Source: a virus. From it: a stretch of 64,000 nucleotides of DNA. The stretch lies in the IMG/VR virus record IMGVR_UViG_3300028283_000495, one strand, 5' to 3'. Position 1 is the stretch's first letter; each line of letters starts with the position of its first letter. This document shows, piece by piece, positions 2,742-61,179 of the stretch. Below the pieces are notes generated by a model, which made no database searches, was not told the origin of the DNA, and saw only the letters and a list, made by a program, of their open reading frames with translations. A program made the position numbers and the translations under genes.

Positions 2742-2942
2742 ATGTTAAACATAGATAAATTAACTAGGGATGAACTACAAAAAGAATTTTTTGAATTTGA
2801 AGGGGATCACCCAGGAAATTGGGAGAAATGGATCAAATGTTTATTAAGTAAGGAGTATTTCAAGGATAGTAGTTTTTATAATTATCTTCTTAATAAGGAA
2901 AGAACAGAATTAATTGATAAAACATTAAATGATAATAACTGA
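2742..2942 (+). CDS. small hypothetical protein with shared C-terminal tag
   Basis: Ends KERTELIDKTLND; overlaps the next start at 2929. Confidence 0.7.
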   Translation: MLNIDKLTRDELQKEFFEFEGDHPGNWEKWIKCLLSKEYFKDSSFYNYLLNKERTELIDKTLNDNN

Positions 2943-3240
2943 TACATACGAAGATAAAGCTGGATATAGCGTGACAATTGGAGATATACAACAATGTTGT
3001 CCTAAATGTGGGAAACACGAAATGTTTCATCTCATTTGTAAAGGTAAGGATGATAGAGGATTTAGAAATGGTATGTCCTTTATAAAATGTCAAGAATGTA
3101 ACTGGAGAGGACTTAGTAAGTATTTAGTAGATCCTTATGAATTTAAAGTTAAAAAGAGAACAGAATTAATCGATAGGATGATTTATGAAGGGAAAATGGA
3201 AAAAAATATGGAACGACGACTTACCAGGATTTCACGATAG
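2929..3240 (+). CDS. zinc-ribbon protein with C-terminal tag
   Basis: CPKCG...CQECNWRG; KKRTELIDRMI. Confidence 0.75.
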   Translation: MIITDTYEDKAGYSVTIGDIQQCCPKCGKHEMFHLICKGKDDRGFRNGMSFIKCQECNWRGLSKYLVDPYEFKVKKRTELIDRMIYEGKMEKNMERRLTRISR

Positions 3241-3454
3241 ATTTCACTGTCCAGAATGTTTTGGTTTTGAATTATTTATAGGAAAAGATCACGTTCAATA
3301 TTATCATTATCAACAACCAACAGTAGTAAATAATACTCCATCTAGAATGAAATGTAAATGTGGATGGACAGGATTATCGACAGAGTTATTAGACAAAGAT
3401 GAAATGAAGAACACTAAAAGGGTAAAATTAATTGATGAAATGTGCAAAGAATAG
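3185..3454 (+). CDS. zinc-ribbon protein with C-terminal tag
   Basis: CPECFG...CKCGWTG; KNTKRVKLIDEMC. Confidence 0.75.
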   Translation: MKGKWKKIWNDDLPGFHDRFHCPECFGFELFIGKDHVQYYHYQQPTVVNNTPSRMKCKCGWTGLSTELLDKDEMKNTKRVKLIDEMCKE

Positions 3455-3684
3455 AAACTATATACAAAGGGGAAGAATTAATAATTGAAGTATCTGATGG
3501 TGCAAGATCTATTGGTAGCGGTTCAAATTTTGGAATAAACGGAGTTCAAATAAATTTTCATAAAGGCATCTTTGACGAAGATACAAATTCTTTTGTTGAA
3601 GATATTTTATGCGAAAGAATCAATATCAATAGAAACAAATTAATTGACGATATACTATATGGGAAGAAAGAAACTAAAATTTAA
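3442..3684 (+). CDS. hypothetical protein with C-terminal tag
   Basis: GTG start; NRNKLIDDIL. Confidence 0.65.
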   Translation: MQRIETIYKGEELIIEVSDGARSIGSGSNFGINGVQINFHKGIFDEDTNSFVEDILCERININRNKLIDDILYGKKETKI

Positions 3685-3985
3685 AACTAAACATAGATGT
3701 CCCAAAAGCACTTGGGGTGGTTATATAGAAGGAAGATTGTTCGATTACGATTATACTAAATGGCCTGGTTGGATGCCTGATTATTATAAACTATATCTCG
3801 ATATGGAAGAAATAGAAGAACTAGGCAAAAAAGAAGATATAGACGAATTCTCATTGGAAATGGCTAAATTAATCAGAAACAAAGAAGAGATAGATTTCCC
3901 AGTAGCCGTAAACTTTACAGAAGACGAATTCAAAAACTTTAGAAGAATGGTCCTAATGGATAATATGCTCAATTGTCAGAAATGA
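3644..3985 (+). CDS. hypothetical protein with C-terminal tag (likely start ATG 3659)
   Basis: Ends NFTEDEFKNFRRMVLMDNMLN. Confidence 0.7.
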   Translation: MTIYYMGRKKLKFKTKHRCPKSTWGGYIEGRLFDYDYTKWPGWMPDYYKLYLDMEEIEELGKKEDIDEFSLEMAKLIRNKEEIDFPVAVNFTEDEFKNFRRMVLMDNMLNCQK

Positions 3986-3990
3986 TAAAA

Positions 3991-4015
3991 ATGACAATAT
4001 TTATATTAATATATA
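3991..4015 (+). promoter_or_regulatory. ATGAC-N14-TATATA bipartite promoter-like motif
   Basis: Intergenic; five other copies in the window have N13. Confidence 0.55.
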
Positions 4016-4173
4016 CAAATAAAAAAGAGTTATGAATTTAATAATAGATAAAAACAGAGTATTTTACCATAGTTCTATTAGTAGAGCTAGATGTGGTAAA
4101 TGGGTACATGTAAGTAATAGTGATCCAAAACTAAAGAATCAAAAGGAATCAGGAATCTTATAGTAGTGGTATT

Positions 4174-4407
4174 CTACCAGATTACGCTGAAATGGAAAGA
4201 GAAGACATTATGCCAAGTTTGTTGACTGGTGTTATCGTACCAATCTGTTACTGTTATATTTATATGTCTATTAACTATTTCCATAATTACCTTATCAAGA
4301 GTATCTTTATCTTGTGTCGGGTATTTATATATCGACCCTTTCTCTTTTTTCCCAAAAGTATATCTGGGACTTTTTTCAAGTTTAGTAGAATATTTATCTG
4401 GTTTCAT
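4174..4407 (-). CDS. hypothetical protein
   Basis: Last gene of the coupled minus-strand run; its ATG lies inside the tag of the upstream gene. Confidence 0.6.
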   Translation of the reverse strand: MKPDKYSTKLEKSPRYTFGKKEKGSIYKYPTQDKDTLDKVIMEIVNRHINITVTDWYDNTSQQTWHNVFSFHFSVIW

Positions 4408-4666
4408 TTAAAGATCTATCAATTATTTTTATTCTCTTATAGTTCTTTGCTTCGTATTCATCTAACGTCTTATTCCAATCACCCATCCATCCACAAGATT
4501 TACATTTTGGAAGAATGGCTCTATTATCTTTTGTGACTTCATATCCTAATATATCGTAACAAACTGGACAATAATCATAATGAATTAGTCTAGCCTGTTG
4601 TTCAGCTCTGTCTAATTGATATTTAAGGGTTTCTATAAATTCTTGTTCCTTTTCTATGCTATTCAT
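4394..4666 (-). CDS. zinc-ribbon protein with C-terminal tag
   Basis: CPVC...CKSCGWMG; KNYKRIKIIDRSLNE. Confidence 0.75.
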   Translation of the reverse strand: MNSIEKEQEFIETLKYQLDRAEQQARLIHYDYCPVCYDILGYEVTKDNRAILPKCKSCGWMGDWNKTLDEYEAKNYKRIKIIDRSLNETR

Positions 4667-4895
4667 TTAACATTTCGTCAATTAATTTTGTTCTTTTTAA
4701 ATTTTTCCATTCTTCTTGGACATAAAATTTATCATGAAAATCTTCTAATTTCAATAATGTATTAAATGGGGCTTTTATCGGCGCTTCAACATGCACTAAT
4801 CCTTTTAGTATTACGAAACTATACCATTTATTTTTTTCATAACAATTGGAGTTCTTATTAAAACTTTCTTTAGCTTTTTCTATTTTATTTTTCAT
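4659..4895 (-). CDS. hypothetical protein with C-terminal tag
   Basis: EEWKNLKRTKLIDEMLNE. Confidence 0.7.
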   Translation of the reverse strand: MKNKIEKAKESFNKNSNCYEKNKWYSFVILKGLVHVEAPIKAPFNTLLKLEDFHDKFYVQEEWKNLKRTKLIDEMLNE

Positions 4896-5166
4896 TTAAC
4901 ATTTCGTCCATTAGTTTTGTTCTTTGCCAATTTTTATATTCTTCTTTTGTAAATTCCACGATATAAGTATCATCGCCCATCATTTCTTTTCCACCAAGTT
5001 TATATTTATCGTTATCTTCTTTACTCACACAACCAACATATTCTTTAAATTCAGACATACTATGATATATTATCCACCCGCCCTCTTTTCTGGTATGTAT
5101 CCATTTTCTTCCATCAATATCAATAATATCATACTTGCCCTTCCACTTATTATCTATCACATTCAT
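4885..5166 (-). CDS. hypothetical protein with C-terminal tag
   Basis: EFTKEEYKNWQRTKLMDEMLNEK. Confidence 0.7.
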   Translation of the reverse strand: MNVIDNKWKGKYDIIDIDGRKWIHTRKEGGWIIYHSMSEFKEYVGCVSKEDNDKYKLGGKEMMGDDTYIVEFTKEEYKNWQRTKLMDEMLNEK

Positions 5167-5485
5167 TTAACATTTTATCTATTAATTCTATTCTTTCGTT
5201 ACACTTAATTTCATTCTTATCAAAATAAAAACGCTTTTTATCATAACCAAAAGCACATTCTACTCCATAAATAGTAATTTCATCGCTCCCATTGGCTTTA
5301 TTTATAAGGTAAATGCCATCATAGTATTCACCCTCTTTAAAATTAGAACCTGGTCCTACATATTTCCCACTTACTGTATATCTATCAGGTGTTGAAAAAT
5401 CCTTTATACAAAGTACTTTTATTTTTTCATAATAACAAGTCGGATATACTTCAGCGTCGGGATAATCGTCAATTACTCTCTTCAT
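5150..5485 (-). CDS. hypothetical protein with C-terminal tag
   Basis: KVLCIK...FKEGEYY resembles the second half of 60373..61179; ends NERIELIDKMLNE. Confidence 0.7.
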   Translation of the reverse strand: MKRVIDDYPDAEVYPTCYYEKIKVLCIKDFSTPDRYTVSGKYVGPGSNFKEGEYYDGIYLINKANGSDEITIYGVECAFGYDKKRFYFDKNEIKCNERIELIDKMLNECDR

Positions 5486-6137
5486 TATACCACATTACTT
5501 CTTTTCTATTATGCTTCTGCCCTTTTAAATCTACCAGATCCTCAAATGGAAGCCAATCAGCCCCAGCATTTTCACAAACTATAACTTGTCCACTTCTATC
5601 TATACACCAAGCACCAAGTGAAGTATAATCAATCTTATTGTTGGTGTAATACTTACCACCATTACCAGAGTAAGGCGGATCTACAAACCAAGTGGCTTTC
5701 ATATTTAACGCGTTTTCATAACTCTCGTTCTTTATGGTCCAATGTTTTACCTTATATAACTCTTCTGATAAAAGTTTGCGATGTTTTTCATCCCAGTCAC
5801 AAAAATTACCTGGGGATTTCTTAGGAACAGAAGAACCAGGATTCAAATATAAACCAATTGTCCACTTCTCGGGATCACTCAGATAATTAAACTCTTCATT
5901 ATTAAGGCATTGTCCCTTTACTAAAAGAGGTAGTCCAAGTATATCTTTAGGTGACGCATCTTGTAAGTATGTCCAAACAGAGTATATTTTATTATTTATT
6001 TCGTATAGAATAACGTCTTTTTCGAAATATTCCATAGCGTAGGCTGCTGAGCCAGCGAAAGGTTCTATAATTGTATCGTATTGAGGAACAGGGTAATATT
6101 TAACTATTCTCTTTTTTCTTCCGTAGTAGTAAAACAT
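5469..6137 (-). CDS. Dam-like (D12 class) N6-adenine DNA methyltransferase
   Basis: YYGRKKR, EPFAGSAAY (motif I), FVDPPY (motif IV). Confidence 0.85.
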   Translation of the reverse strand: MFYYYGRKKRIVKYYPVPQYDTIIEPFAGSAAYAMEYFEKDVILYEINNKIYSVWTYLQDASPKDILGLPLLVKGQCLNNEEFNYLSDPEKWTIGLYLNPGSSVPKKSPGNFCDWDEKHRKLLSEELYKVKHWTIKNESYENALNMKATWFVDPPYSGNGGKYYTNNKIDYTSLGAWCIDRSGQVIVCENAGADWLPFEDLVDLKGQKHNRKEVMWYNEESN

Positions 6138-6269
6138 AAGTTTTTTTATTTTGATATATCAAAAATTTATGATATAGTTTTCATTAAAGCGTAAGTGTTA
6201 AAAAATTTTACACTCGTTTTTTCAAATTTTGAATTTAATATATAAGACAAACAAAAACTACATTTTACT

Positions 6270-7043: not shown

Positions 7044-7071
7044 AATTATGAAAATAAAAAACAAAATTATA

Positions 7072-7110
7072 AAAATAGGATAGTTAATTAAACTTAATTA
7101 TCCTATTTTT
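7072..7110 (+). terminator. intrinsic terminator
   Basis: AAAATAGGATA...TATCCTATTTT inverted repeat followed by a T run. Confidence 0.7.
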
Positions 7111-7114
7111 TTGT

Positions 7115-7294: not shown

Positions 7295-7354
7295 ATTCCC
7301 AATCAACTTAAATTCTACCTTACTATGAAGTAGCGGTATTACTAATCTTTTTTC

Positions 7355-7822: not shown

Positions 7823-7837
7823 ACTATTCTTTTATTT

Positions 7838-8704: not shown

Positions 8705-8804
8705 AAATTAGCTTTTTATTTATATATTAATTTTGTTCTCTCCTAAATTCTTCTTATTTTTGTGTATTAAACTTTTCACGATTTTACTCATATAATATCG
8801 TATC

Positions 8805-10364: not shown

Positions 10365-10382
10365 CAAAAAAGACAAGATTCA

Positions 10383-20471: not shown

Positions 20472-21380
20472 TTAAATAATATCTTTAAATTTATCATAAT
20501 TTTTATCCATTATTATCAAATATTCATATCCCTGATTTCTAGTTTCTTCTTCTTTTGTTTTATTTAATTCTAAATATCTATTATAATAAAAAGTAGATTT
20601 TATTTCTATTACCATATTTTTTTCCTTTATATAAAAATCACTATGATATACTTTATTTTTGCCTTCAAATTTAAATTTTATAGTAGGTCCTTTCCCGACG
20701 TCAATTTTATTATTATAACAATAATCTAAAAAATCTTTTTCGTAGGTGCCCCTATATAATAAATCCATATTTTCATGTAATATCATCTTTTTACCTGATA
20801 TTTGTGATTTTTCAAATAAAAAATTAGATTGAGTAGGATTTTCTACTCCCCAATTTATCAAAGTTGTTTCAATTTTCTTCTTTTTAAATTCATTAAATTT
20901 AGATGGGTTATCAACATTGTATTTTTCCATACAGGTATCTTTAACCCTTTTCTTATATTCTAATGTTTTTGTATAACTAACAAATCCATAATTTTTTAAA
21001 CATGTTTCCTTTTTTTTATCCTTCACTTCTTTTACATCAGATATGTTATCAACACCATATTTTTCATTTAAAGTTTTAGTTGATTTTTTGAATATATCCG
21101 CGTTTTGTTGGGGGAAATCCACGCCATATCTTATTTGGTTAGTAATCTTATTTTTTTCGATGGAACATTTAGCACAACAATAATATCCACCTCTTTTTAA
21201 TTGATTTAGATAATTTTGATACTTAATTGAATTTTCCACTCCACAAGATTCACAGATTGCTACAACTCTAATGGTAGAACAATCACTGAGATCTTCAATT
21301 TTTATCATAATAATATCATTCTTATTATATGGTCCGTACTTATGTAAATATTTTTTATAGGTGGATGATGATATTTTCAT
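20472..21380 (-). CDS. putative free-standing homing endonuclease (K-x-x-L-x-K-Y-G repeats plus TnsA-like PD-(D/E)XK C-terminus)
   Basis: CESCG...CAKC zinc motif; repeats KTLNEKYGVDN, KTCLKNYG; YHSDFY...IEIKS. Confidence 0.75.
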   Translation of the reverse strand: MKISSSTYKKYLHKYGPYNKNDIIMIKIEDLSDCSTIRVVAICESCGVENSIKYQNYLNQLKRGGYYCCAKCSIEKNKITNQIRYGVDFPQQNADIFKKSTKTLNEKYGVDNISDVKEVKDKKKETCLKNYGFVSYTKTLEYKKRVKDTCMEKYNVDNPSKFNEFKKKKIETTLINWGVENPTQSNFLFEKSQISGKKMILHENMDLLYRGTYEKDFLDYCYNNKIDVGKGPTIKFKFEGKNKVYHSDFYIKEKNMVIEIKSTFYYNRYLELNKTKEEETRNQGYEYLIIMDKNYDKFKDII

Positions 21381-21518
21381 TTCTACTGTCGTTTTTTAAC
21401 ATCTTATAAATTATTATTTTTTTTGATACATCTAAATCAAATGTATAGTATTATATATAAATGTTTAAAAATGGAAAAATGAAAATAATATATAATATAA
21501 AATAAATGATTTTTATAT

Positions 21519-22376
21519 ATGATTAAACTATTTGAGGATTTTGAACGAAATATAGAAAAAAAATTAATTTATATGGCGTTCGATATAGACGATAATTTAT
21601 TATACATGCCAACAAGGATTCATATGGATCATTTAGTTAACGGCACTTGGATTACAGAACCAGTAGACACAGAAACCTTCGCTAAAATCAGACAAGATAA
21701 AGTAAATTGGAGATATAAATCCGAACACGAAGGCGACGCATCCTTTGTTGAGTTTCGTGATTGGGGACCAGACGGTAAAGATACATTTTTAAATGGATTT
21801 AAATACGCTGTTCTTCATAAAAGATTTGGTCCTTCTTGGACAAAATTCATAGAATGCTTAGTTAATGGTAATATTTTCTCAATAATAACATCAAGAGGTC
21901 ACTCACCCGAGAATGTTAGAAGAGCATTTGAATGGTTGATATATGAATACGGTTTAGACAATTTTAAAAACCTACATATTAAAAATGTAGATAAATACGA
22001 ATCGTTTGAAGATCAAATGATTCAAAACCTATTGAGATATCACGAGATATTCGGATCTGAACCTGATTACGTTATAGATGAGTACCTTGATGTTTGTCCT
22101 ATCTACACTATATCATCACCTTATTTCAAAGAGAAGTTTGGCAAAATGGGTCCAGATGACGCTAAGAAAGTATCTTTACAAGATTTCAATGAAATAGTTA
22201 AAACTTACGCCAAGAAACTTGGAGTTAAGGCTAAATATGGTTTCTCAGATGACGATCCAAAATTTGTTAAAGCCGCGGTTGATCAATTTAGAGAATTGAA
22301 AGATAAAGATCATAAATATGTTAAGTATTCTGTATTTGATACAGGGGATAAAAAAATGAAGAAATTAGATATATGA
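21519..22376 (+). CDS. HAD-superfamily-like hydrolase with capsid-targeting-like N-terminus
   Basis: FDIDDNL (DxD motif I), ITSRGH (motif II), GFSDDD (motif IV). Confidence 0.7.
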   Translation: MIKLFEDFERNIEKKLIYMAFDIDDNLLYMPTRIHMDHLVNGTWITEPVDTETFAKIRQDKVNWRYKSEHEGDASFVEFRDWGPDGKDTFLNGFKYAVLHKRFGPSWTKFIECLVNGNIFSIITSRGHSPENVRRAFEWLIYEYGLDNFKNLHIKNVDKYESFEDQMIQNLLRYHEIFGSEPDYVIDEYLDVCPIYTISSPYFKEKFGKMGPDDAKKVSLQDFNEIVKTYAKKLGVKAKYGFSDDDPKFVKAAVDQFRELKDKDHKYVKYSVFDTGDKKMKKLDI

Positions 22377-27552: not shown

Positions 27553-27732
27553 ATGGCAGCGAAGAAGAAGAATGTAAAAGTCTTTTTTACAATGGATGAA
27601 GAAATTTACAAAGATTTCGAAAAATATATAGAAGAGAATATTATTGATAAATCAAAGCTTTTAGAGAAGTTGATTATTAAGTATTTAGAAGAAAACAAAA
27701 AAATAATAAAACAATATGGATCCAATATTTAA
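27553..27732 (+). CDS. ribbon-helix-helix (CopG/Arc-like) DNA-binding protein (59 aa, not in track)
   Basis: MAAKKKNVKVFFTMDEEIYKDFEKYIEENIIDKSKLLEKLIIKYLEE: beta strand, helix, x-S helix pattern. Confidence 0.65.
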   Translation: MAAKKKNVKVFFTMDEEIYKDFEKYIEENIIDKSKLLEKLIIKYLEENKKIIKQYGSNI

Positions 27733-28337
27733 ATGGACTGGTGGAAAAAGAAAAGAAATAAAAACGTTTGGAAAATATTATCCAGATTTTGTTAAGAATA
27801 AAGAAAAGTATCTATATGTAGAACCGTTCTTTGGAGGAGGAGCAGTTTATTGGGATTTGGAAAATGATATGAACATTATAAATGACGTGGATTTTGATCT
27901 TATAAGTTTTCTAATGACATTAAAAAAACAACCTGATGAGATATCATCTATTATAGATGATATTGTTCCTAAAATTGAAGATATAACAAATAAGGAGAAA
28001 CAAGGTATTATAGATTGAAATATTTTCTGGTAATTATAAAGATATTATGATTAATAATGATAACGATAATGTCTTTATGTATTTAGATCCACCATATACT
28101 AGGGATTTTAAAGAATATAGTCACGGTAATGTTTTCGATGATGATTCACAAAAAGAATTATCAAAAGTCTTTAAAAGTATCAAAAAAGGAAAAGTAATGT
28201 TGATAATCAATAAAGACGAATTCACAACATCACTTTATAAAGATTACATTAAAGATGAATATGATTTAAAATATGCTACTAATATAAAGAATAGATATGA
28301 TAATAATGTTAAACATTTAATAATAACTAATTATTAA
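27716..28337 (+). pseudogene. Dam-family methyltransferase with internal deletion and frameshift
   Basis: N-fragment FKWTGGKR, VEPFFGGGAVY, INDVD; C-fragment (frame open from 28014) IEIFSGNYKD...YLDPPY; central region absent. Confidence 0.75.
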
Positions 28338-28677
28338 ATGGTATTCAATTTTTTGGATATTACTGAGAGAACTCTTTTAATATTTTCTTCTTGATCAACT
28401 TTCTTAATATTTGCTATATGATCGAAATCTAAATCAAGAATTTTCGAAATTTCTCTACCTGTTCTTAACGAGAAATCTTTTCTATTTGTTTTAATAGATG
28501 AATATTTTAAATCTGAACATCTCCATAAAACTAATCCGAAATCAACGTCTTTGAATCTTTATTGCCATTCCAACTATCACAGAGTCCGGTGACATGTAAC
28601 ATGTTTGTTACTGAGTTGTAATCTCCCCTCATTCCTGTGTTTAGAACTATTTTAATTCCACCTAATATTGTAGCCAT
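28334..28677 (-). pseudogene. hypothetical gene with apparent single-base frameshift
   Basis: MATILGG...GNKDSKTLISD*; the shifted frame RFKDVDFG...KLNTI* runs about 75 codons to abut the convergent stop. Confidence 0.45.
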
Positions 28678-28761
28678 TTTTTTTTATTTTTTAAATTTTT
28701 ACAAATATACTAAAATTATTTAAATTAAAAAACTTAATTCATCATTTTAATATATAGGATT

Positions 28762-29430
28762 ATGATAAAAGTATTTGAACAGTTTAATGAAAATGATCCT
28801 TATGGCGAAGAAAATTGGGATATTCCAATAACTTTGGATAATTATTTAGAAATTATTAGAAATAATATAGATGGAGATGCTACAATAAAAGAAACGAGAA
28901 TAGGATTGCATTTTGTAGAATTTGATATAATGAATAATCTTCCTAATAATATTAAAAAGAAACTAACTTTTCATTTACATCATATTGGTGGAGGTATATT
29001 TGGATTATTATTAATAAACGACAATAGTGAAATAAATTTAGATCCAATTGGACCAGATGATATTTTTAGTGATTTAGATGAAAAGATTGATAAATTGATC
29101 CACTGTTTTTTTTATGAACCAAGTGACCCTTTCAAAGTAAAAAAAATATTTGAACAATTTAATGAGAATGATCCTTATAATGAAGAAGAATGGGGAGATA
29201 ATGAAGAATTTGAGAAAGATGATTTATTAATAGCTAAAAAAAGTCAATTCAAAAGAAGAAAGTCTGGTATAGTTGAACGTATTGTTCAAGGTGAAATATA
29301 TAGAGTAAGAAATGTTATTTATGCTGGCGGTTCAGGAACAAAATATCATACTATAATCGTCCCAGGTATCCTTACTCCAGTTGCCGTTTTTGGTATTGAA
29401 CAAATGAAAGAATTTTTTGAAAAAAAGTAA
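28762..29430 (+). CDS. two-module protein with duplicated targeting-like header
   Basis: MIKVFEQFNENDPYGEENW and internal VKKIFEQFNENDPYNEEEW. Confidence 0.75.
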   Translation: MIKVFEQFNENDPYGEENWDIPITLDNYLEIIRNNIDGDATIKETRIGLHFVEFDIMNNLPNNIKKKLTFHLHHIGGGIFGLLLINDNSEINLDPIGPDDIFSDLDEKIDKLIHCFFYEPSDPFKVKKIFEQFNENDPYNEEEWGDNEEFEKDDLLIAKKSQFKRRKSGIVERIVQGEIYRVRNVIYAGGSGTKYHTIIVPGILTPVAVFGIEQMKEFFEKK

Positions 29431-32469: not shown

Positions 32470-32519
32470 AGCAAAGATATATGTGAACTATTTTTCAATT
32501 ATATATTAAAATATAATAT

Positions 32520-33734
32520 TCAAATATCAACTTTCATAGACTCATCTATTGATGACGCCTCCAGTTGTTTTTGTTTATAGACCGATTGCATTCCACAACC
32601 AGTCTCAAGTTCTTTTAAGAAATATTGATAACCTATATTTCTTATATTTATTGATGCGTTATAATCTCTATCATGTTTCGTTCCACACCTAGGACATAAC
32701 CATTCTCTAATATCAAGAGTTAAATTTTGATTTATCCATCCACATTTCGAACACATTTTACTACTTGGGAACCATCTATTTATATAAACTATATTTCTCC
32801 CATACCATTTAGCTTTATATTCCAAGAAATTAGTAAATTTACTCCAAGAAACATCTGAAATCGATTGCGCCAATTTATGATTTTTCATAATCCCTTCCAC
32901 ATTAAGATCTTCAAGACATATAACTTGGTTTTCGTTAATAAGTCTTATAGACAATTGATGTAGAAAATTTAATCTCTTGTTCTTTATTTTTTCATGTAAA
33001 GATACAAAATTTAATCTTTTATTATAATATTTTTTAGATTTTTTATTTTTTATTTTTGATAATTTTTTTTGTCTATATTTTATTTTTTTTAAACTTTTTT
33101 TGAGAAATTTAGGGTTTTCAATTATTTGTTTATCAGATATCACTGCAAAATTTTTAACTCCTAAATCTATCCCTATCACATTATTATTTTTTATTAATTC
33201 ATTTATAAATACTTTCATATTTAGTGATATAAACCATTTTCCATTTGAATTTTTAGATATGTTTAAAGATATTATATCGCCTTCAATTTTTCTATGGGGG
33301 TTGAATCTAATACCATCCTTAAACTTAGGAAAAGATATCTTATTTTCTTGAACTTTTATAGATATGTATCCATTCACGCTTTGTTGAGGAGATTTAAAAG
33401 ACCCCCCATTTTTTTTAGATTTAAATTTAGGAAAACGATTTTGCTTTCTGAAAAATCGGAGATATGCTGCGTCTAAATTTTTTAAAGACCATTGTATTGA
33501 TTGACTATTTACTTCATTTAGCCAATCGTATCTCTCATCTTTTTTCAATTCTGTTAACATTTTCGATGTTTGAATATATGAAATGTTATCTTTTGAACTT
33601 AAATATCTGTCTTTTTTAAGATTTAAAAAATAATTATATATGAATCTAACACACCCTATATGTTTATTCAGAACAATTTCTTGTTCTTTAGTTGGATATA
33701 ATCTAAATTTATAAGATTTTATAATCTCTTTCAT
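32520..33734 (-). mobile_element. tnpB: solo IS200/IS605-family TnpB RNA-guided nuclease (no tnpA in window)
   Basis: KSYKFRLYPTKEQ HTH, RuvC I GIDLG, RuvC II LEDL, SSKMCSKCG...CPRCG zinc finger, RuvC III HDRDYNASINI; likely start MKEII at 33734. Confidence 0.95.
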
Positions 33735-33758
33735 TGAAAATATCTTAATCTTTATTAT

Positions 33759-33782
33759 TATATATAATAATAAAAAAGTCAT
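33759..33782 (-). promoter_or_regulatory. ATGAC-N13-TATATA motif upstream of tnpB
   Basis: ATGAC TTTTTTATTATTA TATATA. Confidence 0.6.
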
Positions 33783-33818
33783 TTTTATCCATTTAGAATA
33801 AAAAAGTAAAAATAATTG

Positions 33819-39635: not shown

Positions 39636-39716
39636 ATTAGAAAACTAAATGAAAATAATAAATGGGAATAACAATTCAGGCCTCGCATTATTTTATATAT
39701 ACGAATAAAAAATATT

Positions 39717-40502
39717 ATGGAAACAACCAATATTTATGTTCTAAAAGACCCAAGAACTAATGAAGTTAGATATATTGGAAAAGCCAATAATCCTGTTGAG
39801 AGATATAGAAATCATAACAATAAAGGAAGGGATAAAAATACACATAAAAGGAATTGGATCAATGAGTTGTGGAAGAATAAATTGAAACCGATATTAGAAA
39901 TAATAGATACTGTTCCAATAGATAAGTGGAAAGAATATGAAAAATTCTATATTAAAAAATATATAAACGATGGATGTGATCTCGTTAATTATACTGACGG
40001 TGGTGATGGTGCTACTTTTGCAAATGCTACTTCATTTAAACCAGGTAACGGTGCTAGAAAAGTGGTGATGTTGGATAAAAATGGTACATATTTAAGAACA
40101 TTTGATATGATAAAAGATGCTGAAGAATTTGTAGATATAAAGACAAATGGAGTAATGCAAGTTTTAATAAAAAGAAATAAAACTTGTAAAGGATTTCTTT
40201 TTATATATGAAGATGAATATAAAAATATGACTAGTGATGATGTTAATAAAATAGTAAAAGATGCAGTTTATATTCCAAAAGCAAATAATGGTAGTTTTAA
40301 AAAAGGAGACAAACCAAAAAATATTAAAAAGACATATCAATTTGATAAAAAAGGTAATTTTATAAAAGAATGGGATTCAGCAGCAGAAGCTCAAAGAGAA
40401 TTAAAATTAAAAGGTGGTGTAATTAATTGTGCTATAGGAACAGCGAAATCAGCAGGTGGATATTTCTGGTCTTATGATATAACAAAAAATAAATATAACT
40501 AA
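39717..40502 (+). CDS. GIY-YIG homing endonuclease with NUMOD1-like repeats
   Basis: IYVLKDP...RYIGKA...R; QFDKKGNFIKEWDSAAEAQREL. Confidence 0.9.
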   Translation: METTNIYVLKDPRTNEVRYIGKANNPVERYRNHNNKGRDKNTHKRNWINELWKNKLKPILEIIDTVPIDKWKEYEKFYIKKYINDGCDLVNYTDGGDGATFANATSFKPGNGARKVVMLDKNGTYLRTFDMIKDAEEFVDIKTNGVMQVLIKRNKTCKGFLFIYEDEYKNMTSDDVNKIVKDAVYIPKANNGSFKKGDKPKNIKKTYQFDKKGNFIKEWDSAAEAQRELKLKGGVINCAIGTAKSAGGYFWSYDITKNKYN

Positions 40503-46159: not shown

Positions 46160-46315
46160 ATGAATACGGAATTTGAAAACTTTATTAACGAAAGCTATGC
46201 TTTCCCTAAGTCCGCTGAGCCGTTAAAAAATTATTTAATTAATTTATCGTTGGATAAATTTAAATGGTGGTTAAATAGAAAGGGACTAGCAAATTTCATT
46301 CTTGTTCCAAATTGA
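46160..46315 (+). pseudogene. probably truncated gene with targeting-like N-terminus
   Basis: MNTEFENFINES..., AATATATA upstream, overlaps the convergent ORF. Confidence 0.45.
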
Positions 46316-53317: not shown

Positions 53318-53551
53318 TCACATATCTGGTTTATCGTGTTGTGATCTAACACATCTTTCGTATTCTACAATTTTCTTTTTATATTCAATAAAAGCCTTTT
53401 GTATTACTCTTATCGATTCTTCTACGTCACAAGGCTTTTTCAAATCAACCTTCATTAGTAGATTAACTATTCTTGTTGCGTAAACGAATTCTTCTGGGAG
53501 ATTCATTTCTTTCGCTGTTGGCTTATTTTCGTCTAATATTTCTTTCATCAC
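53318..53551 (-). CDS. hypothetical protein
   Basis: Coupled to upstream tagged gene. Confidence 0.55.
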   Translation of the reverse strand: MMKEILDENKPTAKEMNLPEEFVYATRIVNLLMKVDLKKPCDVEESIRVIQKAFIEYKKKIVEYERCVRSQHDKPDM

Positions 53552-53826
53552 TTATTAGTCATTTCATCTATTAATTTCGTCCTTCTGAAATTTTGATATT
53601 CTTCTGTATCATGTCTTCTACCATTTACGTAAAACTGGTGTCCTATACCATCAAAAAATTCAATGGCCGGACCGTCTTCTCTATGTAGTTGATTATTAAA
53701 TTTATATTCAAATCTATCTCCGAATCTAATTTTTTGAGGTTCGTTGCATTTAAGCCAATTTAGTACACCTACTTCTTCTGTATAAAATTCGGCATCAAGT
53801 TTTGCTTCTTTAGTTTTTACGGGCAT
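53548..53826 (-). CDS. HRxDGPA-motif protein with C-terminal tag
   Basis: LHREDGPAIEF; QNFRRTKLIDEM. Confidence 0.7.
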   Translation of the reverse strand: MPVKTKEAKLDAEFYTEEVGVLNWLKCNEPQKIRFGDRFEYKFNNQLHREDGPAIEFFDGIGHQFYVNGRRHDTEEYQNFRRTKLIDEMTNK

Positions 53827-54080
53827 AATTCATCTATTAGTTTTGTTCTGTGGTGATTTTTAAATTCCCCTAATGATAAAAACATATCGAAAATTTTACC
53901 TTCCCATTCACATTTATCACAAATATAGTTTCGATCTTTCATATCGGCCATGAAATCATCTATTTCACCAGTATTATTACCACATTTGGGGCAATGTATG
54001 GTAGATGGCCAACTACTTCTACCAACCCATCCATATGAATTAGGAACAGCTCTACTTACATATCCACTTTCGTTATACAT
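53817..54080 (-). CDS. zinc-ribbon protein with C-terminal tag
   Basis: CPKCG...CDKCEWEG; KNHHRTKLIDEL. Confidence 0.75.
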   Translation of the reverse strand: MYNESGYVSRAVPNSYGWVGRSSWPSTIHCPKCGNNTGEIDDFMADMKDRNYICDKCEWEGKIFDMFLSLGEFKNHHRTKLIDELCP

Positions 54081-55108: not shown

Positions 55109-55112
55109 TTAT

Positions 55113-55709
55113 TTAAATTATTTTATATCTACTATTCATCAACATTTTTGGTGTAAATTCCTCCATTGCCATCAATGAAATAGATTTAACAAGTATATCG
55201 ATATATATGGTATTTTTTGTTTCAAGTTGTCTATTTATATCAGTTACTAAAGCTTCAACTAATTTATTCTCCATCTTTTGAACAATATCCATACCAGTAG
55301 CGGCCTCAATATCCTTCTTATTTTCATGAGATAAAGTTATACCATATTCCTTCTGCTCTAATCTAGGCATTATATCAAATGTTTTCCCACTTAAATTAAG
55401 TTTAGATAATACTTTCATACTCATAGGTAAAAGATTTTGTCCTATATCCCTACCGTCGGCTGGTGGATCAGCGTAAGGAAAAAATCCTCCCATACCATGT
55501 CTATGTGAATCGTAATCATAACTTTCTAATTGATGATATTCAGCGTAAATAGCCATAAACTGCCTTATTTCTGGATCTACTGCTTTTAAAGCGTCTAAAA
55601 CTGGAGCCCACTTCCTTGAAGCTTTTTCAGTATCTATCTTGTAGTTTCTACCTTTTATTTCATATTCCTTTTCCATATTACTCTTCCTTATTTTTTTCAG
55701 CGTACTCAT
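55113..55709 (-). CDS. short protein resembling the N-terminus of T4-like major capsid protein
   Basis: KWAPVLD...MAIYAEYHQLES...LLPMSMKV. Confidence 0.4.
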   Translation of the reverse strand: MSTLKKIRKSNMEKEYEIKGRNYKIDTEKASRKWAPVLDALKAVDPEIRQFMAIYAEYHQLESYDYDSHRHGMGGFFPYADPPADGRDIGQNLLPMSMKVLSKLNLSGKTFDIMPRLEQKEYGITLSHENKKDIEAATGMDIVQKMENKLVEALVTDINRQLETKNTIYIDILVKSISLMAMEEFTPKMLMNSRYKII

Positions 55710-55719
55710 TTACCCACTT

Positions 55720-55971
55720 TTGACGCTCAATTTTTTCCAATCCGAACTAGAAGCCACTTTGGGTTATTATTATTTCTTTTTCGGTTGGGCATCTATGTTA
55801 GAAGGATCATCTAAAAAAGAAGATTTTAAAGAAGGTGTAGGAATAAATGATTGTAATTCAAGTAGATCAAAAACAATATGGTTTTATGAAATTGAATCAA
55901 GTAATGAGAAGAACTTGAGGAGACTAAAAATAATTGATAGATCTTTAAATGAAACAGTACAAAGAAGTTGA
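55720..55971 (+). CDS. hypothetical protein with C-terminal tag
   Basis: NLRRLKIIDRSLNE. Confidence 0.55.
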   Translation: MTLNFFQSELEATLGYYYFFFGWASMLEGSSKKEDFKEGVGINDCNSSRSKTIWFYEIESSNEKNLRRLKIIDRSLNETVQRS

Positions 55972-56290
55972 AAACAAAATTGAATACGAAGTGTTTGAGT
56001 TTGATGAAACCGAACAAGACTACGAAGTTCGTATCATAGAAAGATTTGATTACGCTAAAATTAAAAGAGTCTATGATACTTACACTAACACTTACTATTT
56101 TAAAAGAGGTGAAGCACATAACGATTACGGACCAGCAATGGTAGCTGAAGCAACAGGTCCAGTCTATTACAGATTTGGAGATAAAGTAAAAGACGAAGAG
56201 TGGAAAGCTTATTATCGCACAATGATAATGGATAGAATGTTAAATAGTGACGAATTTCCACCAAAACCAAAAAAATTAGAAGACGTATGA
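55949..56290 (+). CDS. HNDYGPA-motif protein with C-terminal tag
   Basis: AHNDYGPAMV; EWKAYYRTMIMDRMLN. Confidence 0.7.
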   Translation: MKQYKEVENKIEYEVFEFDETEQDYEVRIIERFDYAKIKRVYDTYTNTYYFKRGEAHNDYGPAMVAEATGPVYYRFGDKVKDEEWKAYYRTMIMDRMLNSDEFPPKPKKLEDV

Positions 56291-57753
56291 AAAAATTAGA
56301 ATCCAGATCGAAAAAGAAAATAATTGAATTTTTATCAATAGACCCTATATTTAATGTCTATACTAGAAAATATATGGACTATCTCATCATTAAAAATGAT
56401 CTGAGAATGATATATATTGTTGACTTTGAAAGAATTGGAAAATTAAATTCAGAAATTGGATACGAAGAAGTTAACAAGAAATTTAGAAATATTTTCAAAA
56501 AGAAAATAGATGGTTGTTATATTGGTAGATTCTTCTCTGGTGACGAATTAATAATAGCTTTTGATAATGATTGGGAACAAAAAGATTGTAAAAACGCCAT
56601 TAAAAAAATTAGGAAAAAAGCTAGAAAAGAAGGATTGAATTTTAAATGTCTTCACGTAGGATTGAGTAATAAATCTGGTGGAACTAGTGGTATGGATGGC
56701 GGACATAAGGATCATACTATTGATTGGGCAAATAAATTAAATAGATTAAAACATAAAGTCTTACCTATGAAATCAGAAGATTTGCGTAATATAGGTTTTT
56801 ATACTCTTTCTGATTATAGGGCTATGAAAACTAATATTGATTCTGATATGCAAAGAGGTGAAATTATAATTACTGAGTATTGTAATTTTAAATGTCCTTA
56901 TTGTAGAGGTCTTAATGATGAAATTTATAAAGACAGGAAGTTCAAACAACTCACTCTTGATGAAGTTAAAGAGATAATAGATTTATGGAGCCCACTATCT
57001 AATATAAGATTTTCGGGCGGTGAGCCAACTCTTCATAAAGATTTACTTGAAATGGTTAAATACGCAGCTGATAGCGGAGTAATGAGAATAGCTATATCTA
57101 CAAATGGAACAGCCGATTTGGATTATTATAAAAAATTAATAGAAGCTGGCGTTAATGATTTCTCGATCAGTTTAGACGCTTGTTGTATTTCAGACGGTAA
57201 TAAAATGTCTGGGGTTGAAGATTCATGGTATAAAGTAGTTTACAATATACGTGAAATTAGTAAACTATCATATGTAACAGTTGGTGTAGTTTTAACGCCA
57301 GATAATGTAGAATCTTGTATTCTAACTGTAAGATTCGCTCACGAATTAGGAGTATCTGATATTCGTATAATTTCAGCTGCCCAGTGGAACGAAAAAATTG
57401 CAGGATTAGATTTAATAGAGAACGAAATACTCAGTGAACATCCAATTTTAAAATATAGGGTAGAACATTTTAATAATGGCGTGAATGTTAGGGGATTATC
57501 TGAAACGGATAGTAAGAATTGTGGTATTGTTATAGATGATAGTATAGTAGCTGGTCAAATGCACTTTCCTTGTGTAATTTATATGCGTGAAGGCGGACAA
57601 CCTATCGGTAAAGTTGGACCCAATATGAGACAAGAAAGATTTGATTGGTTTAAGAATCATAACTGCATTGAAGACAAAATATGTAAATCTCAATGTTTGG
57701 ATGTGTGTAGGGATTATAACAATAGGGTAAAAAAATTACAACCAGATTTATGA
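56287..57753 (+). CDS. GGDEF-like domain fused to radical SAM enzyme
   Basis: IVDFERIGKLNSEIGY...RFFSGDELII; CNFKCPYC, RFSGGEPTLH, STNGT, C-terminal Cys cluster C..C...IC...CLDVC. Confidence 0.8.
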   Translation: MKKLESRSKKKIIEFLSIDPIFNVYTRKYMDYLIIKNDLRMIYIVDFERIGKLNSEIGYEEVNKKFRNIFKKKIDGCYIGRFFSGDELIIAFDNDWEQKDCKNAIKKIRKKARKEGLNFKCLHVGLSNKSGGTSGMDGGHKDHTIDWANKLNRLKHKVLPMKSEDLRNIGFYTLSDYRAMKTNIDSDMQRGEIIITEYCNFKCPYCRGLNDEIYKDRKFKQLTLDEVKEIIDLWSPLSNIRFSGGEPTLHKDLLEMVKYAADSGVMRIAISTNGTADLDYYKKLIEAGVNDFSISLDACCISDGNKMSGVEDSWYKVVYNIREISKLSYVTVGVVLTPDNVESCILTVRFAHELGVSDIRIISAAQWNEKIAGLDLIENEILSEHPILKYRVEHFNNGVNVRGLSETDSKNCGIVIDDSIVAGQMHFPCVIYMREGGQPIGKVGPNMRQERFDWFKNHNCIEDKICKSQCLDVCRDYNNRVKKLQPDL

Positions 57754-57968
57754 TAGAACTCAAAACAGGACATGGTGGAGAATGGGTATTTTTGTTGAGT
57801 TCGGAAGAATTTGAAAAATACAATCTTCAAGGATTTAAAATGGATATAAATTCTTATTTCGACGCTGACGGTGAACCACTTATCTGTGTTAGATTTAATA
57901 AAGATAACGAACTTAAAAGTTTTAAAAGATCAAAACTAATAGATAAGATGTTAGATAAAAAAACATAA
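57750..57968 (+). CDS. hypothetical protein with C-terminal tag
   Basis: ELKSFKRSKLIDKML. Confidence 0.7.
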   Translation: MIELKTGHGGEWVFLLSSEEFEKYNLQGFKMDINSYFDADGEPLICVRFNKDNELKSFKRSKLIDKMLDKKT

Positions 57969-57973
57969 CATAT

Positions 57974-58110
57974 ATGGAAGACGAACCTTTATTTTACGAA
58001 GATTTTATATCAACAGAAGACTTTATCAGAGAATTCACGTCAACGAGTGGAAAAATATAAGAAGAACCCAGTTGATAAAAGATATGATAAATGGAAAGTT
58101 AACTAAATGA
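57974..58110 (+). pseudogene. tagged mini-gene with single-base frameshift near 58043
   Basis: MEDEPLFYEDFISTEDFIREFTS, then -1 frame NEWKNIRRTQLIKDMINGK. Confidence 0.55.
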
Positions 58111-58800: not shown

Positions 58801-59861
58801 TTGATTGATTTTATTAAATGTTTAGTACAGTCTAATTTTCCAAAAGGTTTTTCTCCTCCTCTGTGCCAATGTCCACAATGAGGATGGTCTTTATGATGAA
58901 GTTCAATGTGTAACATACTCATTGGACGACCTTTATCTTTTATAATTACTCTTTTAACTTTACCTAGGTACTGTTGTTTAGAAATTTTATCTCCAACTTT
59001 AAGTTCAGGGTTGGCTTCAATTTCACCGTAAACTACAACTCCTGATTCACCTTTAATATAAATACCGTCAGTATCTAACCAAAAGTCATATCCAGCTTTA
59101 GGACCAGTGAAAGGACAAATATCAATTATTTCACCATCTTCAACTGAAAATACTTCAGTTCCTTCTGGTGCGTAGAGGTCAACTCCACAGTGATGATCAA
59201 AACGTCTACGGATTCCAAATGATCCAACGTGAGGATAAACAGGAATCTGAACTTCTTTATTCAAATCTAAATCGAGAAATGAATAAGAATCATTACTTGT
59301 TCCAACACACTTTAGATTAAGTGGAAATTTCCATTTAGGAGTAGGATTAAGAATATCCATTACCTTTTCAACAATTTCTCTTGTGTTAGGAAGTTTACCC
59401 ATTCCTAAGTCACCACAGGCTAACATACCTTCAACTGGGAAGATTACATGCCAACCATATCTTTTAAGCTTATCAATATTTTCCTGAGTAATAGGATTTT
59501 CCCACATATTAGTATTCATAGCGGGACATACAATACGAACCTTATCAGGAAGGGCCAGAACAGTGGCTAACAGAAAACTATCTGATATTCCACCAGCGAT
59601 TTTTGCTATTGTATTTGCAGTACCAGGCACTAAAAGGAAAGCATCACACCATTTAGATTCTTCGATGTGGATAGTCTGGTCTGGGGTTTCAGTTTTAAGA
59701 TTACCTTTACTTATAACATTAACTGCTGCAGATGGACAAAAATTATGAGCACTATCACTCATAATAACATGAACTTCATTACCCATATTCTGCAAGCCTG
59801 ATATAACATCAATGGCTTTATAAGCAGCGATACCACCCGTTATTCCTACTAAGATTTTCAT
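58788..59861 (-). CDS. coaC: CoaC-like flavoprotein (HFCD family) fused to M23 peptidase
   Basis: KILVGITGGIAAYKA, PGTANTIAK, PAMNTNMWENP, LACGDLGMGKLP; then HCGVDLYAPEGTEV (HxxxD) and LHIELH (HxH); likely start 59861. Confidence 0.85.
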   Translation of the reverse strand: MKILVGITGGIAAYKAIDVISGLQNMGNEVHVIMSDSAHNFCPSAAVNVISKGNLKTETPDQTIHIEESKWCDAFLLVPGTANTIAKIAGGISDSFLLATVLALPDKVRIVCPAMNTNMWENPITQENIDKLKRYGWHVIFPVEGMLACGDLGMGKLPNTREIVEKVMDILNPTPKWKFPLNLKCVGTSNDSYSFLDLDLNKEVQIPVYPHVGSFGIRRRFDHHCGVDLYAPEGTEVFSVEDGEIIDICPFTGPKAGYDFWLDTDGIYIKGESGVVVYGEIEANPELKVGDKISKQQYLGKVKRVIIKDKGRPMSMLHIELHHKDHPHCGHWHRGGEKPFGKLDCTKHLIKSIKWKF

Positions 59862-59936
59862 ACATTTTATTTTACTATACAAAATTACTAAATATTCCTT
59901 AAACAAAAAATAAAAATAATGTTAAAAATAACAATT

Positions 59937-59960
59937 ATGACAATATTTATATAATATATA
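59937..59960 (+). promoter_or_regulatory. ATGAC-N13-TATATA motif
   Basis: ATGAC AATATTTATATAA TATATA, 6 nt before ATG 59967. Confidence 0.6.
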
Positions 59961-59966
59961 CGTTTT

Positions 59967-60383
59967 ATGGAGAACAAATTTGAGATATTAGAGATTATAG
60001 ATAAGCATATTGATTTGGAAAATTACGTTGCTCCGTCTATTAATTCACCCAGACAGGATTGGTTTGATGCTCATAATAAAATAAATGACGAACTCAGAGA
60101 AAAGGGATTAATAGGTGAGCACCAGAATATTTATTTTTCTTTTGACGTGCGTGGTAAGATTGATAACATCCATCTTCAATTAGAAACAAGGTGTTTACCA
60201 GATAGAATACCAGAGGAAAGATTTGAAATAGATGGTGCTGACGTGGTGGTAAGAAGAAGAGATTTAGAAGACATAGAGGCTGCGGCTGAAGCTGAAAGAA
60301 AGGCTAGATTCGATTTTAGATCAGATGAATGGAAGAACTATAAGAGAACAAAAATGATGGATAGAATGTTAAATGGAATTTGA
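59967..60383 (+). CDS. hypothetical protein with C-terminal tag, paralog of the first half of 60373..61179
   Basis: DWFDAHNKINDELREKG vs DWHEIHALINEELREKG; ends DEWKNYKRTKMMDRMLNG. Confidence 0.75.
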   Translation: MENKFEILEIIDKHIDLENYVAPSINSPRQDWFDAHNKINDELREKGLIGEHQNIYFSFDVRGKIDNIHLQLETRCLPDRIPEERFEIDGADVVVRRRDLEDIEAAAEAERKARFDFRSDEWKNYKRTKMMDRMLNGI

Positions 60384-61179
60384 ATACGAAGATAGAATGG
60401 AGATGATTAAGGTCATCGATAGTTATTTAGATATAGCTAATTACGAACACAGTAGAAGAAATTACGTACTTAATAAGTCTGGTTTAGTTATACCTAATGT
60501 AACAGTTAATAAAGACTGGCACGAAATACACGCACTTATTAATGAAGAACTCAGAGAAAAAGGGTTTTTTTCTGATAGACATACGCTCTTTATTCATTTT
60601 GATGCATATACTGGAAAAATAGAATCTATTTATATTGAATTAGAAATTCCGCACGAAACAGAAGAAACTCACGACGAATACGAAGTTGGTGATTGTGAAA
60701 TAAAAATAACAAAAAAAGATTCTTTTGTTATAAGTAAAAAAACTGAATTGAGATTTGATTTCAGTCCTTCTGAATGGAAAAATTTCAAAAGAACAGAATT
60801 AATGGATAGAATGTTAAATGAAAAAGTTTTATGTAAAAAATCAATATATTACGAAAATCAATTTCACCCAGGTTTAAACGGTTACTCATTTCTAGAAGGT
60901 AATTTATATCTCATTGTTAATCACTATCAACAAGGAGAAAAAGGCGAAGGTTACTGGGTAGAAACAGAATTATTTAATAGAAACCAAGAGAGATTTCCTG
61001 GTCGTATGACTACTGGTTTCTTTGCTACCGATGATGAATTTTCAAGAAAACATAAAGCTTACGGTTACATTCATTATATAGGAGATTATTTCTTTTTACC
61101 AAATGAAACTAGTAATATAATAAGAACTAATTTAATAGATAAAATTTTAAATAAAGAAAAATTTAGCTTATCTTTGTAA
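60373..61179 (+). CDS. fusion of two tagged modules
   Basis: Internal SEWKNFKRTELMDRMLNEK and terminal NIIRTNLIDKILN. Confidence 0.75.
   Translation: MEFEYEDRMEMIKVIDSYLDIANYEHSRRNYVLNKSGLVIPNVTVNKDWHEIHALINEELREKGFFSDRHTLFIHFDAYTGKIESIYIELEIPHETEETHDEYEVGDCEIKITKKDSFVISKKTELRFDFSPSEWKNFKRTELMDRMLNEKVLCKKSIYYENQFHPGLNGYSFLEGNLYLIVNHYQQGEKGEGYWVETELFNRNQERFPGRMTTGFFATDDEFSRKHKAYGYIHYIGDYFFLPNETSNIIRTNLIDKILNKEKFSLSL
61169..61176 (+). promoter_or_regulatory. TAnnTTTG promoter element
   Basis: TATCTTTG 17 nt before the ligase ATG. Confidence 0.55.

Follow-up and report, generated by a model that had tools for sequence, protein, structure and literature searches.

A 64,000-nucleotide stretch of viral DNA (IMG/VR record IMGVR_UViG_3300028283_000495, here called the window) carries arrays of small genes that end in one and the same short peptide, which we refer to as the tag. 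We found that the tag is a protein feature under strong selection and that it is an undescribed protein module. Together, the structural and evolutionary results described below give good support to a picture of modular small proteins that share a constant, selected C-terminal helix and are encoded in arrays turning over by cassette.

Identification and spread of the tag

An initial annotation of the window had noted the motif at the C-termini of about 17 small genes, which it called unrelated. We built a hidden Markov model (HMM) from 17 seed sites and ran it on the six-frame translation of the window. The model recovered 18 sites on 17 open reading frames (ORFs), scoring 19.0-34.7 bits, and the next best match in the window reached 6.3 bits. 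The maximum scores in 20 first-order (dinucleotide-frequency) shuffles of the window were 5.8-11.5 bits, indicating that the motif occurs well beyond chance. All the sites noted earlier exist at their coordinates, and the 18th tag (58045-58098) was recovered even though it was outside the seed set. The earlier list needs correction, since two of its ORFs are gene remnants (55720, a fragment left by an inversion, and 57974, a decayed gene) and one (60373-61179) is a fusion of two cassettes. Sixteen of the 18 tags end 0-17 residues before the stop codon. The fusion ORF accounts for one of the exceptions, its first tag ending 119 residues before the stop; in the other, the distance is slightly more than 17 residues (21-24 residues from the L codon to the stop).

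The window aligns with positions 212-283 kb of LR756501.1, an uncultured phage record of 735,411 bp, at approximately 86-92% identity over most of its length and 71-83% locally, with an overall identity of about 88% to the matching part. Al-Shayeb et al. 2020 (PMC7162821) assign their largest genomes, among them one of 735 kb that they report as the largest of any phage, to the Mahaphage clade and predict a Bacteroidetes host. The initial annotation had proposed scanning related phages, and a profile search of LR756501 found at least 33 tag copies, in three arrays plus singletons; the window copies and the LR756501 array copies together number 47. The LR756501 tags are confined to open frames of 200 residues or less, so none of them sits on a polymerase-sized protein. 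In a profile scan of 1.84 billion protein cluster representatives there were 119 matches at E <= 0.001, 118 of them genuine. These 118 representatives are small (29-152 residues in 114, 158-207 in the other four), and their tags end 0-24 residues from the C-terminus, in 91 cases within four residues. Dense arrays were also seen in metagenomes, with seven tagged genes in 1,475 bp at locus L010 and eight tags on the 119-kb contig L043. The metagenome scan comprised 67 loci (64 pattern matches and three others), 42 of which lack the tag by profile. A pattern scan of IMG/VR matched one locus, where the tag was absent by profile.

From 193 distinct copies, drawn from the window, LR756501, the metagenome loci and the database matches, we derived the logo E-[YWF]-K-N-x-[KNR]-R-T-[KE]-L-I-D-[KER]-[MI]-L-[NKD]-[EDG]. 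The best conserved residues are R (100%), D (96%), E (91%), I (90%), T (88%), L10 (85%) and N (83%), followed by K3 and L15 (76% each) and an aromatic residue at position 2 (58%). Position 17 is E in 45% of the 126 copies that reach that far, and many tags end in MLK or MTK. The conservation forms a stripe (positions 1, 4, 7/8, 11/12 and 14/15), and one face of the helix carries the near-invariant E1, N4, R7/T8 and D12, then L10/I11 and M14/L15. Variants are family-specific in the N-terminal half, for example an ET-x-NILRT form in one body family.

Searches of Pfam, PHROGs and NCBIfam gave no match over the tag residues, and the best E-value among PDB sequences searched with the tag profile was 0.67. 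The same four resources returned no family for the larger tagged or tag-like proteins of LR756501. The searchable literature held nothing on the motif or on a tagged small-protein family in megaphages, and the word stems 'paralog' and 'tandem' do not occur in the main text of Al-Shayeb et al. 2020.

Two single proteins deserve mention here. A 189-residue protein of LR756501 (locus L072 1831-2400, LR756501 ~565.3-565.9 kb) has a tag-like stretch, YWMNKNRTDLIDKMLDE, in mid-protein and not at its end; by eye, its N-terminus resembles that of window ORF 55113-55709, whose protein has no such stretch. The tagged 207-residue protein P0088, on short ENA contigs (L005, L006), gives its database sequence only when TAG is read as Q. 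Some tag-carrying relatives may thus have reassigned a stop codon, which has been reported for Lak phages.

Selection on the tag peptide

The tag DNA had also been proposed as a junction that provides recombination homology and translational coupling, with a comparison of synonymous and non-synonymous change as a check. We compared non-synonymous (dN) and synonymous (dS) divergence in 13 ortholog pairs between the window and LR756501. The tags gave a dS of 0.41, a dN of 0.031 and a dN/dS of 0.076; the bodies, that is, the proteins without their tags, gave 0.45, 0.090 and 0.20. With equal dS and a three times lower dN, the tags are therefore under selection for their amino-acid sequence, and their synonymous sites are as free as those elsewhere. 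This result counts against a tag conserved as a DNA junction. Among paralogous tags, conservation is lowest at codon position 3; DNA identity averages 63% between pairs, and most exact matches extend over 6-10 nt. Furthermore, tag RNA is unstructured (minimum free energy -1 to -5.4 kcal/mol, z-scores -1.35 to +0.85). The recombination and coupling junction is real, yet it is a consequence of the tag and not the reason for its conservation.

Bodies and predicted structures

BLASTP clustering of 161 tag-trimmed bodies gave 34 clusters. The largest is a zinc ribbon with 73 bodies (45%), followed by clusters of 13, 13, 8, 7 and 6; 19 bodies are singletons. A CxxC...CxxC pattern is present in 74 of the 161, and body lengths run from about 25 to 130 residues. 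When the ten largest tag-trimmed families were compared by hhalign, there was one possible link (59% probability), and all other pairs were below 5%; against the zinc-ribbon family, with tags removed, the other families reached a probability of at most 4%. The initial annotation had called the bodies unrelated. That description held between families and failed for the approximately 45% that belong to one homologous zinc-ribbon family.

We modelled two members with AlphaFold2. The 4394-4666 protein was predicted to form an N-terminal helix, a zinc ribbon and a tag helix at residues 70-88, with a mean predicted local distance difference test (pLDDT) score of 90 and 83-93 over the tag block. The 4885-5166 protein was predicted to have seven strands, a short helix and a tag helix at residues 74-91; its mean pLDDT is 75, and its tag block is mostly at 84-85, with the last residues at 59. 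In both models, the tag is thus predicted to be a single C-terminal helix following bodies of differing secondary structure. A Foldseek search with the zinc-ribbon model found generic ribbons only (Rpb9, TFIIS and transposase ribbons; E >= 0.085 in PDB and >= 0.014 in the clusters of the AlphaFold database). Every Pfam score of the zinc-ribbon bodies was under the gathering threshold, with weak similarity to the TFS, Elf1 and Rpb9 ribbons. ESM Atlas searches with the whole protein and with the tag alone gave no usable match.

Tagged genes of the window

The window is AT-rich (26-38% GC). Its tagged genes and their remnants are the following.

2742-2942, plus strand: tagged gene, 66 residues, tag 2883-2930; helical-looking body type found only here; first gene after the SbcC/gp46-like ATPase gene
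2929-3240, plus strand: tagged zinc-ribbon gene, 103 residues, tag 3139-3186 followed by a 17-residue tail; ATG inside the preceding tag
3185-3454, plus strand: tagged zinc-ribbon gene, 89 residues, tag 3401-3448
3442-3684, plus strand: tagged gene, 80 residues, GTG start within the preceding tag; tag 3613-3660, a weaker copy (19.3 bits)
3659-3985, plus strand: tagged gene, 108 residues, tag 3926-3973; last of this plus-strand array
4198-4407, minus strand: 5' half of a tagged gene split by an inversion, an intact 146-residue frame in LR756501; ATG inside the tag of gene 4394-4666
4394-4666, minus strand: tagged zinc-ribbon gene, 90 residues, tag 4406-4453
4659-4895, minus strand: tagged gene, 78 residues, tag 4665-4712, the top-scoring copy (34.7 bits)
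4885-5166, minus strand: tagged gene, 93 residues, beta-rich body, tag 4894-4941
5150-5485, minus strand: tagged gene, 111 residues, tag 5165-5212; first gene after the D12-class Dam-like methyltransferase gene
53548-53826, minus strand: tagged gene, 92 residues, HREDGPA motif in the body, tag 53554-53601
53817-54080, minus strand: tagged zinc-ribbon gene, 87 residues, tag 53820-53867, ending at the stop codon
55729-55971, plus strand: 3' half of the inversion-split gene, tag 55903-55950 (ORF listed as 55720-55971)
55949-56290, plus strand: tagged gene, 113 residues, HNDYGPA motif in the body, tag 56198-56245 followed by a 14-residue tail
57750-57968, plus strand: tagged gene, 72 residues, tag 57909-57956; same body family as 4885-5166
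57974-58098, plus strand: decayed tagged gene, start kept, out-of-frame internal deletion, hybrid tag 58045-58092
59967-60383, plus strand: tagged gene, 138 residues, alpha/beta-looking body, tag 60327-60374
60373-61179, plus strand: fusion ORF, 268 residues, two tags (60772-60819 and 61105-61152)

The ORF that had been listed from a TTG at 3644 most likely starts at the ATG at 3659, because the start of its homologue P0004 in the database is placed at the corresponding residues, MGRKKLKF. The proteins of 53548-53826 and 55949-56290 gave no Pfam match at E up to 1; the MORN-variant (HxxDGPA) repeat model does not fit them, and they have only the short HREDGPA or HNDYGPA motif.

Start codons embedded in the tag

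The start of the next gene was found within tag DNA, as had been noted. Nine starts in the window lie in the N/Y-E codon pair, read AAT-G or TAT-G (2929, 3185, 3659, 4407, 4666, 4895, 5166, 55949 and 60373), and two lie elsewhere within the tag (3442, a GTG, and 53826). The position is regular: in 55 of 96 junctions (57%) the next ATG is 19 or 20 nt past the first base of the tag L codon. There are two types of junction, one with the ATG in AAT/GAT-G of tag codons 16-17 and the other with an AAATGA stop-start overlap. The residue preference at tag positions 16-17 (N/D, then E/G/D/V) is linked to this overlapping start codon. The embedded ATG would allow termination-reinitiation coupling on an A-rich, unstructured leader, which might suit a Bacteroidetes host that initiates translation without Shine-Dalgarno sequences.

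Turnover of the arrays

The initial annotation had proposed checking whether gene order between tags varies among relatives and had suggested that the tag might serve as a recombination junction. Between the window and LR756501 we found eight insertions or deletions (indels) in the arrays, six of which remove or add whole genes. Three of the eight are tag-to-tag crossovers that left hybrid tags behind. In the first, window genes 2929 and 3185 correspond to a single LR756501 gene with a hybrid tag. In the second, LR756501 has one extra cassette after the 4885 gene, with the crossover point within the tag. In the third, an LR756501 gene has been lost at window 58045-58098, and the remaining tag is a hybrid of two LR756501 tags. 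Another three indels span exactly from start codon to start codon. After the 53548-53826 gene LR756501 carries two further tagged genes. The fusion ORF 60373-61179 was made by a microhomology deletion; in LR756501 it is two separate genes with a third tagged gene between them, which has been removed here. The eighth indel is the out-of-frame deletion inside the 57974 gene. Gene content between tags therefore differs between these relatives. The junction claim fared less well, with the three crossovers in its favour and, on the other side, a tag that is not conserved as DNA, half of the cassette indels ending outside tags at start codons or microhomologies, and an inversion that breaks in a gene body. 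Gene-sized indels are equally common outside the arrays and, therefore, tags are not needed for turnover. The comparison of these two genomes provides a clean natural example of whole-gene growth and shrinkage of arrays in phage hyperplastic regions.

The region as a whole is hyperplastic, and further gene-sized insertions, deletions or replacements relative to LR756501 were seen outside the arrays at window 20476-21576, 27708-29411, 39636-40486 and 46162-46294. In addition, single contigs in three runs, among DNA as well as RNA libraries of the lake, depart from the window sequence at tags or close to them (2917, 4652, 4928, 5162 and 5194). These may come from co-occurring strains with different cassettes.

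The largest rearrangement placed part of one array beside another.

4198-55737, no strand assigned: 51.5-kb inversion relative to LR756501, with a breakpoint overlap of 3-9 nt

One breakpoint is in the body of a tagged gene, which was split, and the other is in non-tag DNA; a tag-mediated inversion was rejected on these grounds. Contigs from three independent runs bridge the breakpoint at 4198, showing that the inversion is not an assembly artefact of the window. The inversion explains the odd ORF 55720 and also a 31-nt identical block common to two tags 51 kb apart (4401-4431 and the tag at 55903-55950), as the genes of both tags are adjacent in LR756501. Within each genome the block is identical between the two paralogous tags, and the sole difference between the genomes is synonymous and shared by both tags. 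This concerted change hints at gene conversion.

Genomic context and detection in lake water

Recognisable genes that adjoin tag arrays in the window include the following.

84-2735: SbcC/gp46-like ATPase gene
5469-6137, minus strand: D12-class Dam-like methyltransferase gene

A PAS protein gene was also recognisable, and genes for an ATP-dependent DNA ligase and for an RNA ligase are adjacent. The genes of an array share one strand. The window and three independent metagenome contigs (L023, L042 and L030) have arrays directly downstream of an SbcC/gp46-like gene; an array follows a Dam-like methylase in the window and L016, and it is a PAS protein gene that precedes an array in the window and L022. 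LR756501 encodes another, shorter SbcC/Rad50-like ATPase (566 residues; L003 1003-2703, LR756501 ~671.0-672.7 kb), whose ATG is embedded in the last tag of the third array, so that two SbcC-like paralogs each adjoin an array. This is conserved synteny, with the arrays at the 3' ends of operons of early or middle appearance. The arrays have no shell, scaffold or portal gene next to them. As regards integron-type cassettes, which have an integrase and an attC-like imperfect inverted repeat at each end, there was no integrase among the window ORFs scanned, which are part of all ORFs, and the tag regions form no hairpin.

The sliding-clamp-binding tails of T4 gp43, gp33 and gp55 were considered as a model for the tag. 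We dropped this candidate, as the 20 large window ORFs scanned included no clamp gene and the tag was found only in LR756501 frames of 200 residues or less.

Lake-water runs contain the exact window DNA, and two of these libraries are metatranscriptomes. Contigs from the two metatranscriptome libraries cover the arrays at 99-100% identity, which speaks for presence only, as DNA carry-over is possible; contig depth in the RNA libraries cannot rank expression.

Interpretation of the tagged family

We interpret the tagged genes as a lineage-specific multigene family of Mahaphage-type huge phages, one that turns over fast and encodes small modular proteins. A variable N-terminal body is combined in each of them with a constant C-terminal alpha-helix of 16-18 residues, and there are at least 30 body types beside the zinc ribbon. 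The chances seem about even that the constant helix is a shared interaction module tying diverse small heads to one partner, which could be a phage protein, a host protein or a protease adaptor. The initial annotation had suggested a docking or degron helix that brings diverse cargo to a common hub; as a docking helix, this is plausible. The variable heads would then supply target specificity, and early or mid-infection expression of the genes might provide a library for host takeover or anti-defence. The short homology of the tag and start junction would permit unequal recombination as a by-product, and this would speed up cassette turnover.

Several points weigh against this interpretation. 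The helix may be packed on its own body instead of being exposed to solvent. Members of the zinc-ribbon family have a fixed spacing (CxxCxWxG, approximately 10 residues, then the tag), so in this family ribbon and helix could together make up a single domain. The residues K3, N4, K6, R7, T8 and K9 would also fit a nucleic-acid-binding helix. The apparent precision of the cassettes may in part be survivorship, since only frame-preserving indels persist. Moreover, expression timing is deduced from neighbouring genes only.

A bolder version, which we regard as unlikely, makes the helix a true address label that is read by a single receptor. This could be a hub formed by a protease or adaptor, a compartment made by the phage, or, for co-injection, the capsid interior or the portal. 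The array, with its tag and fixed embedded start codon, would then be a plug-and-play slot for an evolvable effector library, in which any small ORF landing upstream of a tag would at once be expressed, coupled in translation and sent to its destination.

Small genes of unknown role number in the hundreds in huge phages, and a single helix that is present on at least 33 genes per genome and in over 100 public protein clusters offers a handle on this dark matter. The tag profile can be used to annotate genes, one peptide can be used as bait for a common partner, and the variable heads amount to a library of small binders supplied by nature. Should the helix indeed serve for docking or sorting, a C-terminal signal of this kind would be a first among tailed phages, and it could find use as a portable tag.

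Alternative explanations and known systems

The membership checks covered T4 capsid targeting, the encapsulin cargo peptide, PeSL, integron cassettes, the zinc ribbon, the MORN variant and curated families. Where checked, the tag has the defining features of none of its closest analogues, which are the T4 capsid-targeting sequence, the phage G zinc-ribbon expansion and PeSL cassettes.

It is quite unlikely that the genes are an ordinary paralog family, in which tandem duplicates of one zinc-ribbon-plus-helix gene retain the helix as the most constrained part of a single domain, the other bodies being degenerate or overprinted and the helix having no separate docking role. The single zinc-ribbon cluster with its fixed ribbon-to-tag spacing is consistent with this, as are the tandem arrays, in which the unit boundary (the embedded ATG) would be inherited with each copy, and the way the N-terminal half of the tag varies by body family. 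There is also a precedent: the jumbo phage G of Bacillus has a lineage-specific expansion of approximately 35 zinc-ribbon proteins, for which a role as transcription factors or in DNA binding was suggested (Iyer et al. 2021, PMC7824862). The zinc-ribbon subset studied here, 45% of the bodies, is an expansion comparable to these dozens of small genes. Unlike the situation in phage G, as far as it can be set beside ours by description, the conserved element here is the helix after the ribbon, which also ends at least 30 non-ribbon body types. Tag-trimmed profiles of these other bodies appear unrelated to the zinc-ribbon family, body lengths run from about 25 to 130 residues, and the predicted secondary structures are wholly different, a helix and zinc ribbon in one model and seven strands in the other. 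Furthermore, the fusion ORF is a new body-tag combination that arose by deletion.

Still less likely is a helix that binds nucleic acid or drives oligomerisation, which would make the proteins small DNA- or RNA-binding proteins or transcription factors. The polar and basic positions named above are conserved and are followed by a hydrophobic LI-x-x-ML, many bodies are ribbons with weak similarity to those of transcription proteins (TFS, Elf1 and Rpb9), and the phage G ribbons were proposed as transcription factors or structural DNA-binding proteins (PMC7824862). On the other hand, the acidic E1 and D12 are near-invariant (91% and 96%), the helix is too short for a stable zipper, and no match to any DNA-binding family was found.

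Lower again in our ranking is the address label in its narrow sense, a C-terminal sorting or cargo-loading peptide that sends proteins to one place, either the capsid interior for co-injection or a phage-built compartment. The tag is indeed a short terminal peptide common to unrelated cargo, and the L-N-E ending of some copies resembles the L/I-x-E sites at which T4-type prohead proteases cut. In T4, the capsid-targeting sequence of the internal proteins IPI, IPII and IPIII is a common address and not part of the fold; it is N-terminal, approximately 10 residues long, cleaved by the prohead protease and carried by late-expressed virion proteins. The tag is similar in being a short terminal peptide on otherwise unrelated small proteins from a hypervariable locus of a large myovirus. 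It differs in being C-terminal, predicted to be helical, free of a conserved cleavage site, and located in operons that look early or middle. We dropped the prohead-protease site as an explanation, given the lack of conservation of E at tag position 17 (45% of copies) and the many tags with a final K. The neighbouring recombination, methylation and ligation genes, of kinds expressed early or in the middle in T4-like phages, would also argue against virion cargo, as does the lack of an adjoining shell, scaffold or portal gene. Encapsulin cargo-loading peptides and the PRANC/F-box tails of poxvirus ankyrin proteins are constant C-terminal peptides that dock variable cargo or heads onto one receptor. 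They resemble the tag by analogy only, with no sequence or structural relation; the C-terminal position is shared with the encapsulin peptide, but no HK97-fold shell gene adjoins any array.

Finally, it is highly improbable that the tag is kept as a recombination site or as the initiation region of the next gene, with the peptide as a by-product: the fixed column of the next ATG, the hybrid tags of the three crossovers, the concerted 31-nt block and the A-rich, unstructured RNA would all fit, but this explanation is largely refuted because dS is the same in tags and bodies whereas dN in the tags is lower by a factor of three, and it is further opposed by the poorly conserved third codon positions and low paralog DNA identity, by the retention of residues such as R and D through synonymous changes in the 193 variants, and by the frequency of gene-sized indels outside the arrays. 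PeSL cassettes of T4-type phages are intergenic DNA motifs (a promoter and a stem-loop) found at the ends of indels and replacements in hyperplastic regions (Arbiol et al. 2010, PMC2839356; Comeau et al. 2014, PMC4122927). Like the tags, they are short conserved boundary sequences that mark insertions, deletions and replacements between close relatives. Unlike them, the tag is part of a coding sequence, its RNA lacks structure, and what is conserved is the peptide and not the DNA.

A TnpB-like gene in the window

The window also carries a TnpB/IS605 OrfB-like gene (ORF 32520-33782, minus strand) with HTH_OrfB_IS605, OrfB_IS605 and Cas12f1-like TNB domains. The surrounding stretch, 32482-33802, is absent from the syntenic position of LR756501 and has the look of a TnpB-only element that inserted recently into a huge phage.

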